A DNA stretch of 64,000 bases from a virus (Duplodnaviria; Heunggongvirae; Uroviricota; Caudoviricetes): positions 69,905 to 133,904 of the IMG/VR virus record IMGVR_UViG_3300021399_000001; one strand, 5' to 3'. The notes below the pieces were generated by a model. The model saw only the letters and a list, made by a program, of their open reading frames with translations, ran no database searches and had not been told where the DNA came from. Each line of letters opens with the position of its first letter. The first letter of the stretch is position 1. Positions 42,223-47,678 of this stretch are shown here, piece by piece. A program made the position numbers and the translations under genes.

Positions 42223-42339
42223 GGCACCGTAGTGCAAAGGTAAGCACGCCGGCCTTTGTGAGATAGGGTAAAGCGCAGTTCAACTCTGCCGTCTCGCACC
42301 ACAAGCCGGTGATGCTGGGTTCAAGTCCCGCCGGTGCTT
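42223..42339 (+). tRNA. tRNA (Gln-TTG-like) with a 44-nt insertion in the anticodon loop
   Basis: Acceptor GGCACCG/CGGTGCT, D-arm GTGC-AAAGGTAA-GCAC, T-arm CTGGG-TTCAAGT-CCCGC, CCA encoded. The anticodon-stem strands CCGGC (42249-42253) and GCCGG (42305-42309) are separated by 51 nt that begin CTTTG and end AA. Confidence 0.45.
42257..42301 (+). other. minihelix-like element nested in the anticodon loop of the preceding tRNA
   Basis: GTGAGAT then a 10-nt spacer then GCAG-TTCAACT-CTGC, then C, then GTCTCGC-A-CCA. The 5' and 3' 7-mers are fully complementary (with G-U pairs). Confidence 0.4.
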
Positions 42340-42345
42340 CCATAT

Positions 42346-42418
42346 GCTACCATCGTCTAATGGCTTAGGATATATGCCTCTCACGCATATGATACCAGTT
42401 CAAATCTGGTTGGTAGTG
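42346..42418 (+). tRNA. tRNA-Glu (anticodon CTC)
   Basis: Acceptor GCTACCA/TGGTAGT, anticodon stem TATGC/GCATA with loop CTCTCAC, T-arm ACCAG-TTCAAAT-CTGGT, CCA encoded. Confidence 0.55.
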
Positions 42419-42686
42419 CCAGACTTCGCAACCGAAACGTATAATCGGCCAAATCGACAAATATTGCGGCGAGTACGCGGAACTCTCGTTAAAATATCCG
42501 CTCCATGTCAGTCTACTCCAAGTAGAGAGCATTTCTCATAGAGAAGAAATGAATGTATTGGTCCATATCCAATGACTGGCGCCATTCTCTTATAAAGAGA
42601 CTACTTTCATACACGCAGTATGAGTTGCGAACGGTCTGCGTTATCAAAATCGTTAGCTTTTTATTTAAATAAGGAGTTGTTGTATT

Positions 42687-42974
42687 ATGGCAATTCACGA
42701 TAGAGCTTATACTCGTGCAAAAAGTTATTCCAAAGCCATGCGGAAATATCATATTGACAGAGATGTTTCTGCTGGTAGATGGCCTCTTTATTACAACAAC
42801 ATTCATCAATATGCCGATAATAAAATTCATTGTTCATGCCCTATGTGTTCTGAAAAAACTAATAATAAAAATCGTAGTAGGGCTAGAGGATGGGAATCTT
42901 CAAAAAATTGGTCAATTACAGATAAAAGAAAACTGGAAGATATGGAAAATCAAATAGAAGAATTAAATAATTGA
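42687..42974 (+). CDS. hypothetical protein; paralogue of the 43847 ORF
   Basis: RBS AAGGAGTTGTTGTATT. C-terminus KNWSITDKRKLEDMENQIEEL aligns with KNWSPNDKRKLNDCQNQIEEL of the 43847 protein. Confidence 0.5.
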   Translation: MAIHDRAYTRAKSYSKAMRKYHIDRDVSAGRWPLYYNNIHQYADNKIHCSCPMCSEKTNNKNRSRARGWESSKNWSITDKRKLEDMENQIEELNN

Positions 42975-42999
42975 CTTCTTCTTTAAATTATATTATAAT
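42971..42999 (+). promoter_or_regulatory. consensus promoter copy 9
   Basis: TTGACT, 17-nt spacer, TATAAT. Confidence 0.6.
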
Positions 43000-43027
43000 A
43001 TATATAGAAAGAATGAAGGAGATAATT

Positions 43028-43231
43028 ATGATTGAAATTATTAAACATGGGCGTCCAAGAGACAAAGTTACTTGTAATTGTTGCAGTTGTATTTTCTCCT
43101 TTGATGATAGAGACATTCAAAATAATGGCTGCCAATATGATTGGATAGAATACTTAAAATGTCCCGATTGCGGTAATAAAATTATTTTACATCGTGGAAG
43201 TCCTTTTAAAGCTAAAATGCCATATGAATAA
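43028..43231 (+). CDS. small zinc-ribbon protein; paralogue of the 31308 ORF
   Basis: ATG-43028 after AAGGAGATAATT (ORF track 42971 runs through the promoter). IEIIKHGRP..TCNCCSC...CPDCGNKI. Confidence 0.5.
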   Translation: MIEIIKHGRPRDKVTCNCCSCIFSFDDRDIQNNGCQYDWIEYLKCPDCGNKIILHRGSPFKAKMPYE

Positions 43232-43260
43232 TTGACTTTCTGTTAAAATTATAATATAAT
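43232..43260 (+). promoter_or_regulatory. consensus promoter copy 10
   Basis: TTGACTTTCTGTTAAAATTATAATATAAT; leader TATTATAGAAAGGG. Confidence 0.65.
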
Positions 43261-43282
43261 TATTATAGAAAGGGTGAGATAA

Positions 43283-43657
43283 GTGAGCTGGAAAACCTCT
43301 CAAAATCGTAAAAATCATCAGCGCGCACTTAATACTTTAGCGCGCAAGATTAATAAGAATGTAAAAGAAGATCCTATGTGGAAAGGCCGTTATTGTGTAC
43401 GACAATATAAGTCATGGTGGCGCACAGATTATGAGGATCCTAATTATTATGTATTCTACGCTCAATTCATTTTTTATGACAAGAAAACTAATAAAACTTA
43501 TCTTACTGATATTAAATCTGCCAATGATTGGCAATTTCTTGGCGGATATAAGCTATGGTGGGAAATGAATGATTTCATTGTTGATAGCGGAGTATGGCAA
43601 GAAGAACCTCGTATTACATATGAAAATACTCCTGATTTTCGGAATGTAGTCATTTAA
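43283..43657 (+). CDS. hypothetical protein
   Basis: GTG start after AAGGGTGAGATAA; 124 aa. Confidence 0.45.
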   Translation: MSWKTSQNRKNHQRALNTLARKINKNVKEDPMWKGRYCVRQYKSWWRTDYEDPNYYVFYAQFIFYDKKTNKTYLTDIKSANDWQFLGGYKLWWEMNDFIVDSGVWQEEPRITYENTPDFRNVVI

Positions 43658-45590: not shown

Positions 45591-45615
45591 CTTTTAGCAG
45601 AAAATCTGCTATAAT
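45587..45615 (+). promoter_or_regulatory. consensus promoter copy 15 (drives the tRNA / ncRNA block)
   Basis: TTGACT, 17-nt spacer, TGCTATAAT. Confidence 0.6.
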
Positions 45616-45695
45616 AAATATGTAAGGCGGCCACAGCAAATATTATTCAAGCAGTAATCTTTTAAATTATGTAGCTAAAAATCCGCCTAGAATTT

Positions 45696-45769
45696 GGGGT
45701 TGTAATCGAATTGGCATAGGTACTGCGCTTAGAACGCAGGTTTTGAGAGTTCGACTCTCTCCTTCCCCA
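45696..45769 (+). tRNA. class-I tRNA with anticodon TAG and tandem U-U mismatches in the acceptor stem
   Basis: Exact 74-nt standard geometry. Acceptor GGGGTTG/CTTCCCC, anticodon stem CTGCG/CGCAG with loop CTTAGAA, short variable arm GTTTT, T-arm GAGAG-TTCGACT-CTCTC, CCA encoded. Confidence 0.5.
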
Positions 45770-46385
45770 CCAAGACACATTCAGCAACTCAAAGTTTATC
45801 TTTGAATCGTCAGTTCAAATCTGACCTCGCGCATCGCGCAAGTAGCATAGTGGATAATGCAAAAGACAGAAAATGTGTCTAGTACGAGACTTGCAATCAC
45901 CACCCGCCTTCGGTGATAAAACAGGGGTTAACACTCGTTTGTGAGTAACGCTCGGAAAACGCCTGTATAAAAAAGAAAGAAGCGAGGACAGCCAGCCCAA
46001 CAGCTGTGGGTATGGTGGTAACTCTCACATCCTAGGAGTCCTGACGCTGTTATTGGACTTAATACTCAACGGAGTTGGTACCCAAACAAATCCTAGGATG
46101 TTATGGTATCAAGTGAAGAGCCTTCTCGTGGCGATACTGATTTCGACGAATCTTCACAATGAAGAACGGCTAGAATCGCGTTCCCTATAATTCCTCGTAG
46201 AAATTATAGTCTTAGTCACTAGCAATAAATATTAAAGAGCGCATTTCCCGTCCTGATCAGCGAGTAGAAATGCCAAAGAGCTCCCAGTGATATTGGGCGG
46301 GTGCGAGCACCCGTATAAGGGAACCCGGGGTGTACGAGAAAGCGTGGATAAGAGTGGACCGGCCACGATGAAATAGCTCACTTTA
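45770..46385 (+). ncRNA. GC-enriched structured noncoding block (unclassified)
   Basis: ~615 nt with no ORF. Contains a T-arm-like hairpin GTCAG-TTCAAAT-CTGAC, many long-range stems (for example GGGTA...TACCC and GTGAAGA...TCTTCAC), and an S-element-like AAATTATAGTCTTAG. Confidence 0.3.
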
Positions 46386-46389
46386 ATAT

Positions 46390-46418
46390 TTGACTTTTTC
46401 TTCAAATCATGCTATAAT
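46390..46418 (+). promoter_or_regulatory. consensus promoter copy 16 (drives the structured RNA and HNH gene)
   Basis: TTGACT, 17-nt spacer, TGCTATAAT; leader TATTATAGTAAAGAGGAAAGG. Confidence 0.6.
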
Positions 46419-46439
46419 TATTATAGTAAAGAGGAAAGG

Positions 46440-47140
46440 AAGTAGATACTCTATTTAATAAAATGGTTGAACCAAGTGAAGAAGAGCTAACCACTCTGCT
46501 TGGGCTATCTGAATAACAGCCATACGATTTAGCGGGATACTACTAAATCGCGGCCGCAAAATCAGTAATGATTAGCGATAAAGAGAAACTCTGAATGTTA
46601 AGGGTAGGCGCTTGGTTATCCGCTAACAAAAGCACGATTCCTCACGGCATCATAATAGAAGTCAAGCGTTAAAAGCGTAGACTGAATCCTAGTTAGGGTT
46701 TAGCTGGTGACTTGTATCAAACCTAGGAAAGACCAACAAGATGCTATTGTCGTTGAAACCTAGAAATAGGCTATAAGTGAGGTTTACGGTAAAAGTAGCT
46801 TAAAGTGACAACAAGTTCTTGGTATTAGAACAAATAATACATATTTGATTTATTATTAAAGAATTTGCTGAATGGTTTAAGTGAAATTTGGGAGTAGACA
46901 ATCTCCCCGTTGCTAGTCGAAAGACAGGGTGAAGAAGTTAAAGGGTCGCTACCTTTGGCTCAGCCTTCATCTTCAACGTGGCTGAATATGTTTAGAAGGA
47001 TAATACAAGTACGGCGAAGGTCGCAACGGTTTTATTAAATAGGGTATTTGCCCTAAACTTTAAGGTAGCATTGGAGTAATTAACCAATGAGACAAAGATG
47101 CTCCTACATCGGCTTAAAGTTTAAAATATAATCATAGGAG
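46440..47140 (+). ncRNA. structured noncoding block upstream of the second HNH endonuclease (candidate ribozyme or ncRNA)
   Basis: ~700 nt with no ORF. Follows promoter copy 16. Contains ACTACTAAATCGCGG (similar to the group I intron R element GACTAAAT) and a downstream TAGTCG. Confidence 0.3.
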
Positions 47141-47148
47141 TGATTTAT

Positions 47149-47559
47149 ATGAAAGCAGGAGATAAAAGAATTTGCCAAATTTGTGGCACAGAATTTGAAA
47201 TTATTGATAAAGGATGGAGTAGAAAATACTGTTATAAATGCTCTCCAAAAATTGATAAATCTGGAAAAACTTTGACATACGCGGAAAATATTACGATAAA
47301 ACGTCGTGCTATTAAAGAAATGTTAATTGCTTATAAAGGTGGAAAATGTGAACGATGTGGCTATGATAAGTGTAATAGAGCCTTAGAATTTCATCATATT
47401 AACCCACAAGAAAAAGATTTTGGTATTTCTAACAATATCAATCGTAATATTGAAGAATTAAAATCAGAAGTTGATAAATGTATTCTTTTATGTTCCAATT
47501 GCCATGCCGAAGTTCATCAAGAACTTTATGATAAAGGTCTTTTAAAAGAAGAATTTTAG
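47149..47559 (+). CDS. HNH endonuclease with N-terminal zinc finger
   Basis: ATG-47149 after TAGGAGTGATTTAT. CQICGTEF...CYKCSP is a zinc ribbon. EFHHINP...LLCSNCHAEVH is the HNH motif. Confidence 0.7.
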   Translation: MKAGDKRICQICGTEFEIIDKGWSRKYCYKCSPKIDKSGKTLTYAENITIKRRAIKEMLIAYKGGKCERCGYDKCNRALEFHHINPQEKDFGISNNINRNIEELKSEVDKCILLCSNCHAEVHQELYDKGLLKEEF

Positions 47560-47678
47560 GCGGATTCGCTCAGTGGTTGAGCAGTCGGCTGGTTGGATAG
47601 AAATAGTCCTCGTTGAGTGCAAGACTCAAATCCAGCACCATTAACCGACCTAGGGGAGTTCAATTCTCTCATCCGCCG
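47559..47678 (+). tRNA. tRNA (anticodon GGT? Thr-like) with a 49-nt insertion in the anticodon loop
   Basis: Acceptor GGCGGAT/ATCCGCC (perfect), D-arm GCTC-AGTGGTT-GAGC, T-arm GGGAG-TTCAATT-CTCTC, CCA encoded. Anticodon-stem strands GTCGG (47584-47588) and CCGAC (47645-47649) are separated by 56 nt. Confidence 0.45.
47590..47643 (+). other. minihelix-like element nested in the anticodon loop of the preceding tRNA
   Basis: GCTGGTT then an 18-nt spacer then TTGAG-TGCAAGA-CTCAA then ATCCAGC-A-CCA. The T-loop variant TGCAAGA resembles the TGCAAAT loops seen elsewhere. Confidence 0.35.

Follow-up and report, generated by a model that had tools for sequence, protein, structure and literature searches.

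Two tRNA genes on a stretch of DNA from an uncultured rumen phage carry insertions in their anticodon loops, and each insertion is itself shaped like the acceptor and T-arm portion of a tRNA with a CCA end. The stretch (hereafter the window) is 64,000 nt long and covers positions 69,905 to 133,904 of the IMG/VR record IMGVR_UViG_3300021399_000001, class Caudoviricetes; gene and insert coordinates are window positions on the + strand (Table 1). To our knowledge, the textbook view is that bacterial and phage tRNA genes carry self-splicing introns only. In the first gene, for tRNA-Glu(UUC), the two strands of the anticodon stem (CCGGC/GCCGG) are separated by 51 nt, and in the second, for tRNA-Asn(GUU), the strands (GTCGG/CCGAC) are separated by 56 nt. 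The Glu insert is laid out as an acceptor 5' strand (GTGAGAT), a 10-nt linker, a T-arm (GCAG-TTCAACT-CTGC), an acceptor 3' strand (GTCTCGC), A73 and CCA. The corresponding parts of the Asn insert are GTTGGAT, a 14-nt linker, TTGAG-TGCAAGA-CTCAA, ATCCAGC, A73 and CCA. An earlier note on this DNA had described the stem-strand spacing, the hairpins, the complementary 7-mers and the ACCA ends, and had placed an RNA ligase gene and HNH endonuclease genes nearby; all of these are present.

Table 1. Interrupted tRNA genes, their inserts and neighbouring genes. Coordinates are window positions, except for the nested suppressor tRNA, which lies in related loci (L numbers).
Feature	Position	Strand	Evidence
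Interrupted tRNA-Glu(UUC) gene, including encoded CCA	42223..42342	+	Rfam tRNA; ARAGORN with introns; syntenic insert-free alleles
tRNA-Glu 5' exon, last loop bases CUUU (positions 32-35)	42223..42257	+	Comparison with insert-free L009 allele
Glu insert, 44 nt	42258..42301	+	Unique loop-restoring placement; descriptor match; same insert in five other contigs
tRNA-Glu 3' exon, first loop bases CAA (positions 36-38)	42302..42342	+	Loop restoration; in-silico splicing
Interrupted tRNA-Asn(GUU) gene, including encoded CCA	47559..47681	+	Rfam tRNA; ARAGORN with introns; syntenic insert-free alleles
Asn insert, 49 nt, between G34 and U35	47592..47640	+	Unique placement; homologous inserts in L009 and L080
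Nested amber-suppressor tRNA	L006 5325-5401; L070 60-135; L071 3467-3619 (- strand)		Rfam
Rnl2-like ATP-dependent RNA ligase, 216 aa, nucleotidyltransferase domain only	39689..40339	+	Pfam RNA_ligase PF09414, E=3e-18; phrog_548
cREC (cyclic-phosphate-processing receiver) domain protein	38810..39196	+	Pfam PF20274, E=4.5e-18
DUF2828/DUF7788 protein, 'RNA-binding protein' in PHROGs	36359..37891	+	Pfam; phrog_850, E=7.5e-116
Calcineurin-like metallophosphoesterase	34520..35185	+	Pfam Metallophos; phrog_547
HNH endonuclease gene abutting interrupted tRNA-Asn	47140..47559	+	Pfam HNH
NUMOD4-HNH endonuclease gene, about 430 bp upstream of interrupted tRNA-Glu	41319..41795	+	Pfam

Both genes are recognisable as tRNAs with the inserts in place. 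The Rfam tRNA model (RF00005, gathering score 29 bits) matches 42223-42339 with 44.8 bits and 47559-47678 with 42.2 bits, both above the gathering score, and neither locus gives an Intron_gpI match. The full model is covered in each case, and the surplus bases (a 53-nt insertion in the second gene) fall in the anticodon loop. Default ARAGORN finds 29 tRNAs in the window and skips both interrupted loci; when introns are allowed (-i), both are called, with inserts of 44 and 49 nt, and when the inserts are removed the default settings call Glu(ttc) and Asn(gtt). According to ARAGORN these are the sole Glu-UUC and Asn-GUU genes of the window, which had therefore seemed to lack both. Standard tRNA finders miss such interrupted genes, and phage tRNA repertoires are under-counted as a result.

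The shape of the inserts was sought with a plain descriptor, which asks for a stem of 7 bp whose 3' strand is directly preceded by a hairpin (5-bp stem, 7-nt loop) and followed by N-CCA. In the window it finds 28 sites on the + strand, made up of phage tRNAs, three tRNA-shaped genes missed by default ARAGORN and both inserts, against none on the - strand and 0.22 per shuffled window. The occurrence of tRNA-shaped inserts is well beyond chance, and the description of them as CCA-terminated acceptor/T-arm minihelices nested in anticodon loops is borne out by the sequence as well as by the scan.

Relatives were fetched via the nearby RNA ligase, which yielded 14 IMG/VR loci and 41 metagenome loci, mostly from rumen. 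The phage lineage is uncultured; a megablast of 41500-48500 against GenBank phages returned an HNH fragment only, and blastn of each interrupted gene against GenBank phages returned no match. A 938-aa protein used as the handle gave no relatives, and a 601-aa protein gave mostly unrelated contigs, in which ARAGORN calls 'introns' of 222-245 nt; these had no Rfam support in the two representatives checked (L058 and L061) and were rejected. An exact-pattern scan for the entire Asn insert context found nothing.

Comparison with the relatives fixes what was inserted and where. At the site syntenic with the interrupted tRNA-Glu, an ordinary tRNA-Glu(UUC) is found in nine IMG/VR loci and the interrupted form in L008. 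At the second site, an ordinary tRNA-Asn(GUU) is found in L001, L005, L006, L007, L008 and L015, and the interrupted form in L009, so that at either site some close relatives have the insert and others do not. L009 also holds, at 9638-9713, an insert-free Glu allele in which the exons and upstream flank of the window are almost identical; the loop of this allele reads CTTTCAA, and its anticodon stem differs by a single compensatory change. Such uninterrupted syntenic alleles fix the insert boundaries to the nucleotide, and a 7-nt loop is restored by one placement only (CTTT, then 42258-42301, then CAA in Glu; CTG, then 47592-47640, then TTAA in Asn). Removal of the inserts leaves the loops CUUUCAA and CUGUUAA. 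The first gene, which had been taken for Gln-like in the earlier note, is thus Glu-UUC, as are its uninterrupted syntenic alleles, and the second is Asn-GUU with its intron between G34 and U35. The exon-exon junctions expected after insert removal are ...GCCGGCCUUUCAAGCCGG... for Glu and ...GUCGGCUGUUAACCGAC... for Asn, with the predicted spliced-junction k-mers GCACGCCGGCCTTTCAAGCCGGTGATG (Glu) and GAGCAGTCGGCTGTTAACCGACCTAGG (Asn); the unspliced exon/insert junctions read CCTTTGTGAGAT, GCACCACAAGCC, GGCTGGTTGGAT and GCACCATTAACC. The Glu insert is present in six contigs and the Asn insert in three, each always in the same tRNA. Compared with its homologues in L009 and L080, the Asn insert differs by two compensatory changes within the 7-bp stem, and the Glu insert of L077 (6704-6747) has G73 and hence a GCCA end.

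These two inserts belong to a wider family. The relatives contain about 15 distinct inserts of the same design in genes for tRNA-Glu, tRNA-Asn, tRNA-Leu(UAA), tRNA-Ile(UAU) and tRNA-Lys(UUU). Those in tRNA-Leu(UAA) fall into at least four sequence families, lying between loop positions 32 and 33, 34 and 35, or 35 and 36 (written 32/33, 34/35 and 35/36), those in tRNA-Ile(UAU) form three families at 34/35, and tRNA-Lys(UUU) has a single insert of 105 nt at 34/35. Across the family the junction is at 35/36 in Glu, at 34/35 in Asn, Ile, Lys and some Leu genes, and at 32/33 in the Leu gene of L031, and never at 37/38. The inserts range from 44 to 105 nt without a sequence core shared across families, and their architecture is constant though the junction moves within the loop. 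A structure-only scan independent of ARAGORN (a nested acceptor/T-arm/NCCA unit, a flanking 5-bp stem and a 7-nt loop left over) recovered all of the inserts and no further tRNA species. In every one of the 14 interrupted genes tabulated, the first base of the excised piece starts a 7-mer that pairs with the 7-mer just before A73-CCA, or its variant. The 3' end is ACCA in 13 of them, the exception being L002 (7237-7360) with ACAA. Insert removal leaves an 8-nt loop in the Leu gene of L034 (7588-7720; CTTAAAAA). The variant copies in L034, L002 and L077 could be decaying copies, assembly errors or tolerated variants. Likeness to an acceptor/T-arm with CCA is the only constant feature of the insert family across the five tRNA species. 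No source tRNA was found for the inserts, the closest tRNA 3' halves differing at 6 or more of 24 positions. The Leu-type inserts of L001, L015 and L031 also have a conserved CCAGUG within the linker, which can pair with CACU on the 3' side of the T-hairpin. This pairing could imitate the contact between D-loop and T-loop, or be part of an alternative fold.

Selection on this structure can be seen when the inserts are compared with one another. Boundaries were set without regard to pairing, and pairing was then scored against shuffles (n=500). The first 7 and last 7 nt, which form the acceptor-like stem, are paired in 95.2% of cells, compared with 57% in the shuffles, none of which (0/500) reaches the observed value; double changes occur at 7/7 pairs, and slid registers give 31-47%. 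Several of these pairs are U-G, so that the structure is meaningful only in sense-strand RNA. The T-arm, taken as the 17 nt just 5' of the 3' strand, is 84.6% paired, compared with 60% when shuffled (0/500). No variation is seen in its closing G-C pair, which corresponds to G53-C61, or in the C at loop position 3, which corresponds to C56, and loop position 4 is a purine throughout; these are hallmarks of tRNAs. The outermost pair of the stem is often unpaired. The result is a 12-bp coaxial acceptor-plus-T helix with a 7-nt T-loop, and a linker of 9-16 nt where the D and anticodon arms would be. Taken together, these patterns argue that the inserts are selected for structure at the RNA level. 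Some inserts have unusual T-loops (GGCAGCA, AGCAGCA and GGCGGUA), and similar loops occur in free-standing tRNAs of the clade. One example is a CCA-ended tRNA-Cys(GCA)-like gene at 31211-31286 of the window, missed by default ARAGORN, whose T-loop GGCAGCA is that of the relatives' Leu and Lys inserts.

In three relatives the nested unit is not reduced. The insert at 34/35 of tRNA-Ile(UAU) in L006, L070 and L071 is a complete cloverleaf tRNA with the anticodon CUA, that is, an amber suppressor. In L006 the nested tRNA scores 50.1 bits in Rfam and the outer tRNA 50.8 bits, and between contigs the 1-72 pair of the nested tRNA is swapped from C-G to G-C. These copies indicate that nested units have a full tRNA form, and suggest that a complete suppressor tRNA can nest inside another tRNA. 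A homologous 74-nt Ile insert in L001 and L005 keeps the acceptor stem, the T-arm and an anticodon-like stem, its loop having shrunk to 6 variable nt, and decoding capacity is lost in most inserts. The inserts of 44-50 nt are best read as tRNAs that would have been cut down to what end-processing enzymes need. No in-frame TAG was found in the 1.4-1.9 kaa of protein sampled, outside the late genes, from L006 and L071. Elsewhere in the clade, L028 has a free-standing CUA suppressor tRNA (1784-1870), and two of its conserved genes, the counterparts of window 47962-48501 and 60901-62178, contain TAG codons in frame. This points to recoding of TAG in some phages of the clade.

To judge from their exons, the outer tRNAs appear functional. 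After in-silico insert removal all 13 genes tested were called as tRNAs by default ARAGORN, and the anticodon was as expected in 12; in L034 the 8-nt loop caused it to be read as 'taaa'. The tested exons comprise six divergent tRNA-Leu backgrounds together with Glu, Asn, Ile and Lys, and perfect cloverleaves are kept throughout. The junctions always restore U33 and purine 37. In the interrupted Glu alleles the anticodon stem differs yet remains paired (CCGGC/GCCGG versus TTGGC/GCCAG). The same Leu and Asn introns are also found within quite dissimilar exons. These observations argue against pseudogenes, and also against a mere carrier role. We are highly confident that the insertions are real, tRNA-shaped and under selection, and that their boundaries are exact.

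Genes of RNA repair lie close by. The RNA-repair cluster (34520-40339) sits between the two tRNA arrays of the window and ends with the Rnl2-like ligase, 1.9 kb upstream of the interrupted tRNA-Glu. The ligase is also upstream in contigs found via the Glu insert alone. It has a weak PDB match to T4 Rnl2, and its motifs KIDG, EGVV and KIK (KxDG, EGxV and KxK) are intact, which makes it a candidate exon-sealing enzyme. A scan of genome contigs gave one distant ligase match and nothing pointing to a host. The metallophosphoesterase is a possible 3'-end healing enzyme, and the DUF2828/DUF7788 protein is possibly a partner of tRNA-like RNAs. In the search for a polynucleotide kinase, no Walker-A motif was found in any open reading frame between 31.5 and 51.7 kb of the window. 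The cREC domain has been described as operonically linked to RNA ligases, in cREC-ligase modules (PMC7824862).

We propose that the inserts are tRNA-mimicking introns which are removed by tRNA-trimming enzymes and resealed by the phage ligase, a reading to which we assign a probability of roughly 0.55. The intron would be recognised as a tRNA by its own shape rather than by its exon context. RNase P would cut at insert +1 (between 42257 and 42258 in Glu), leaving a 3'-OH on exon 1, and an endonuclease would cut directly after the CCA (A76), leaving a 5'-phosphate on exon 2. Candidates for the 3' cut are an RNase Z of the Thermotoga/Escherichia coli type, RNase E or some phage enzyme. The body of the tRNA would hold the halves together while the ATP-dependent Rnl2-like ligase joins them, and the products would be mature tRNA-Glu(UUC) and tRNA-Asn(GUU), each accompanied by a free CCA-ended minihelix. 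The junctions coincide with the mature ends of the tRNA-like unit wherever in the loop it lies, for which recognition of the intron as a tRNA is the most economical reading. Ends with 3'-OH and 5'-phosphate could be joined without healing, in keeping with the absence of a recognisable kinase nearby in this one window of the genome. Precedents for the 3' cut exist: the RNase Z of T. maritima cleaves immediately after an encoded CCA, and RNase E is able in some cases to produce such ends directly (PMC7479834).

Several points weigh against this proposal. Splicing is inferred solely from exon conservation. Single-sequence folding energies of the inserts are not significant (Z-scores of -0.3 to -2.4), and because they are unconvincing the structural case depends on comparative evidence. 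B. subtilis RNase Z is inhibited by CCA, which matters given that the lysins of the phage (GH25 and PG_binding_1 domains) suggest a Gram-positive host. Rnl2-type ligases prefer nicks in duplex RNA, and broken anticodon loops are sealed by Rnl1. The ligase is also present in relatives and other phages without interrupted tRNAs, among them the closest ligase-bearing GenBank records (MT835544 and MW202615). The introns of Lak megaphages, discussed below, have a 5' leader of 26-31 nt, so that a simple RNase P/RNase Z scheme is not transferable to them. Lastly, the cluster of ligase, cREC protein and phosphoesterase is equally well explained as general repair of anticodon-nuclease damage (PMC7824862).

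The foremost alternative, though we think it unlikely, is that the nested RNA, whether minihelix or suppressor tRNA, is the product and the outer tRNA its carrier, the halves being discarded after RNase P and 3' trimming. The complete suppressor tRNA in the Ile-UAU genes of L006, L070 and L071 is what would be expected of such a product, and RNA embedded in a tRNA anticodon arm is stabilised in engineered tRNA scaffolds. The 'RNA-binding' DUF2828 protein of the window could also bind tRNA-like RNAs (PMC7824862). A carrier, however, would have no use for an exact anticodon loop, and yet U33 and purine 37 are restored in every case. Perfect cloverleaves with 7-nt loops after removal, in six divergent Leu backgrounds as well as Glu, Asn, Ile and Lys, are likewise at odds with it, as are the compensatory changes in the anticodon stems of interrupted alleles and the absence of decoding capacity from most inserts.

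It is less likely still that the inserts are selfish mobile DNA with 7-bp terminal inverted repeats, perhaps shielding a homing-endonuclease site, and that the genes which host them are tolerated pseudogenes. Presence and absence do vary among close relatives, and tRNA cassettes are exchanged beside HNH genes. Intron-bearing Asn and Leu alleles have the anticodon stem in common and differ in the remaining exon parts, which could reflect co-conversion. Mobile DNA, however, would not account for U-G pairs that make sense only in sense-strand RNA, for the invariant G53-C61 pair and C56 positions, or for an A73-CCA end in nearly all inserts, and the exons are without decay. Nor do the nearby HNH genes follow the inserts among the relatives. 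Collaborative homing by HNH was considered and rejected, as no co-occurrence with inserts was found. The HNH gene upstream of tRNA-Glu has no full homologue in related loci: L006 gives a partial match of 37 aa, and L008, with the same Glu insert, gives none. The HNH gene abutting tRNA-Asn has homologues in L005 and L008 that stand before uninterrupted tRNA-Asn genes, and no such HNH gene accompanies the interrupted genes of L008 and L009.

A very improbable alternative, raised in the earlier note, is that of bulge-helix-bulge (BHB) introns of the archaeal/eukaryal type, cut by an EndA-like endonuclease and rejoined through a healing-and-sealing pathway. The size of the inserts (44-105 nt) and their anticodon-loop site resemble those of protein-spliced introns, and the cREC protein and phosphoesterase could heal 2',3'-cyclic phosphate ends. 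The BHB motif consists of two 3-nt bulges containing the cleavage sites, with a 4-bp helix between them. Here the 5' cut abuts the 5' base of the 7-bp helix and the 3' cut lies 4 nt past its 3' strand, within a single strand of 7-10 nt, and the position varies and is never the canonical 37/38. Among the window proteins submitted to Pfam and PHROGs, none was recognisable as EndA-like or as a kinase. Equally improbable are self-splicing introns (mini group I or II, or a small ribozyme) and assembly artefacts. Of the intron types found in the anticodon loops of bacterial tRNAs, group I is the established one, tRNA-Leu(UAA) with its intron at 34/35 included, and its conserved P3-P9 catalytic core usually exceeds 200 nt. 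The two inserts, at 44 and 49 nt, are as the earlier note held too small for it, and the family (44-105 nt) has no common sequence core. No Rfam intron or ribozyme family matches 40000-52000 at E<=1, or 47540-47700 at E<=10. An artefact is ruled out because the same inserts, with compensatory variation, turn up in many metagenome assemblies made independently.

A broader form of the proposed tRNA-mimicking intron is held more tentatively, at somewhat less than even odds. Under this reading tRNA splicing would have a third route, besides self-splicing and the BHB endonuclease, in which a tRNA or minihelix intron is removed by end-maturation enzymes and the exons are joined by a ligase, with the reverse chemistry as its origin and two RNAs made per transcript. 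Such an intron would arise when a host anticodon nuclease breaks the loop of one tRNA and the ligase joins a second, mature tRNA into the gap, after which the joined RNA would be copied back into DNA. Such an origin would yield boundaries that match mature tRNA ends exactly, and would link the conflict over anticodon cleavage to the birth of introns. One transcript could then give two RNAs, for example tRNA-Ile(UAU) and an amber-suppressor tRNA, and the release of the suppressor and the supply of tRNA would both depend on ligase expression.

Some known systems share features with the inserts. In mitochondrial tRNA punctuation, MALAT1 mascRNA and engineered tRNA-gRNA arrays, RNase P and RNase Z excise tRNA-like units and leave 5'-phosphate and 3'-OH ends. 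The flanking RNAs of those systems are not rejoined, whereas here the flanks would be tRNA halves in need of precise ligation. In T4 repair, PrrC cleavage is followed by joining of the tRNA halves at the anticodon-loop break by Pnkp and Rnl1. T4 shares with this phage an ATP-dependent RNA ligase and RNA-repair genes among tRNA genes; there damage is repaired with a kinase-phosphatase, whereas here the break would be programmed, the ligase is Rnl2-like and no kinase was found nearby. BHB and group I introns have the anticodon-loop site in common with the inserts, and the Leu-UAA insert of L015 at 34/35 lies at what we take to be the classic cyanobacterial group I intron site. The inserts are without a BHB motif or group I core, however, and their structure is wholly intronic. 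Acceptor/T-arm minihelices are minimal substrates of RNase P, the CCA-adding enzyme and some aminoacyl-tRNA synthetases, and are known as laboratory constructs, of whose shape the inserts are a naturally occurring version.

The closest parallel is found in Lak megaphages, the only other phages reported with tRNA-like tRNA introns. Their tRNAs carry 'enigmatic' introns, of which one (tRNA-Thr UGU) 'may encode a tRNA' (Devoto et al., 2019; PMC6784885). The supposition that splicing here would need an activity not described for phages has to be qualified, in that phage tRNA introns had already been reported there. That report offers no mechanism. Both systems involve anticodon-loop inserts in phage tRNAs that are not group I introns, and in both presence or absence varies between genomes. 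Every Lak intron re-read from Table S6 of the report has a tRNA-like acceptor/T-arm core, a general architecture that the report does not note (PMC6784885). These introns are 79-141 nt long, with a leader (a hairpin plus an A/T-rich AAATTAAA spacer) before the core, and so the 5' junction of a Lak intron does not fall at an RNase P site. No CCA is encoded in them, and they stop at the discriminator or 1-2 nt beyond it. In the inserts described here, by contrast, both junctions are tRNA-like ends, CCA is encoded, and most are minihelices of 44-50 nt. All 15 GenBank Lak genomes (Prevotella phage Lak, MK250015-MK250029) encode a homologue of the ligase with 30-32% identity. In the literature, the Lak papers aside, no description was found of tRNA introns that are CCA-ended or tRNA-shaped, as in this minihelix family. 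The family belongs with the Lak-type phenomenon but has a distinct architecture, and its mechanism, if confirmed, would be new in kind.

If the inserts are spliced as proposed, it would be RNase P and 3'-end processing that recognise the intron, and a phage RNA ligase that joins the exons. Phage RNA ligases would thereby gain a routine role beyond the repair of damage. The route would also offer an explanation for the Lak introns, for which no published mechanism since 2019 was found.

The tRNA genes of these phages are themselves variable. Between phages with about 90% identical proteins, the tRNA sequences at syntenic sites differ greatly. In L015 a different, plain tRNA-Asn takes the place of the HNH gene (47140-47559) and the interrupted tRNA-Asn, with flanks 99% and 96% identical; the swapped spans are 47056-47674 of the window and 17699-17773 of L015. 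This suggests that tRNA genes are exchanged as cassettes. A short GC-rich hairpin followed by AATATG (about 42190-42222) stands just upstream of several tRNAs, also in L009 and L015, and adjacent tRNAs are separated by TAT spacers, which together may be a shared processing or promoter/terminator element.

Other RNA genes were noted in the window. The tRNA array between the interrupted genes includes a full-length ROOL RNA (46448-47042, 331 bits), in a block 99% identical in L015, and a drum RNA (44660-44756, 50.3 bits). Default ARAGORN also missed a CCA-ended tRNA-Tyr(GUA) at 29927-30013 with the T-loop UGCAAAU, and a CCA-ended tRNA-like gene at 42507-42584 with a 7-bp 'anticodon' stem and an 8-nt loop. 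The tRNA that it calls His(atg), at 50647-50719, has a low Rfam score (37.7 bits) and an unmodified A34, and its identity is doubtful. Further downstream, a PIN-PhoH fusion protein (58744-60012), whose PIN domain is a possible RNase, is followed by a permease of the xanthine/uracil family (60901-62178).

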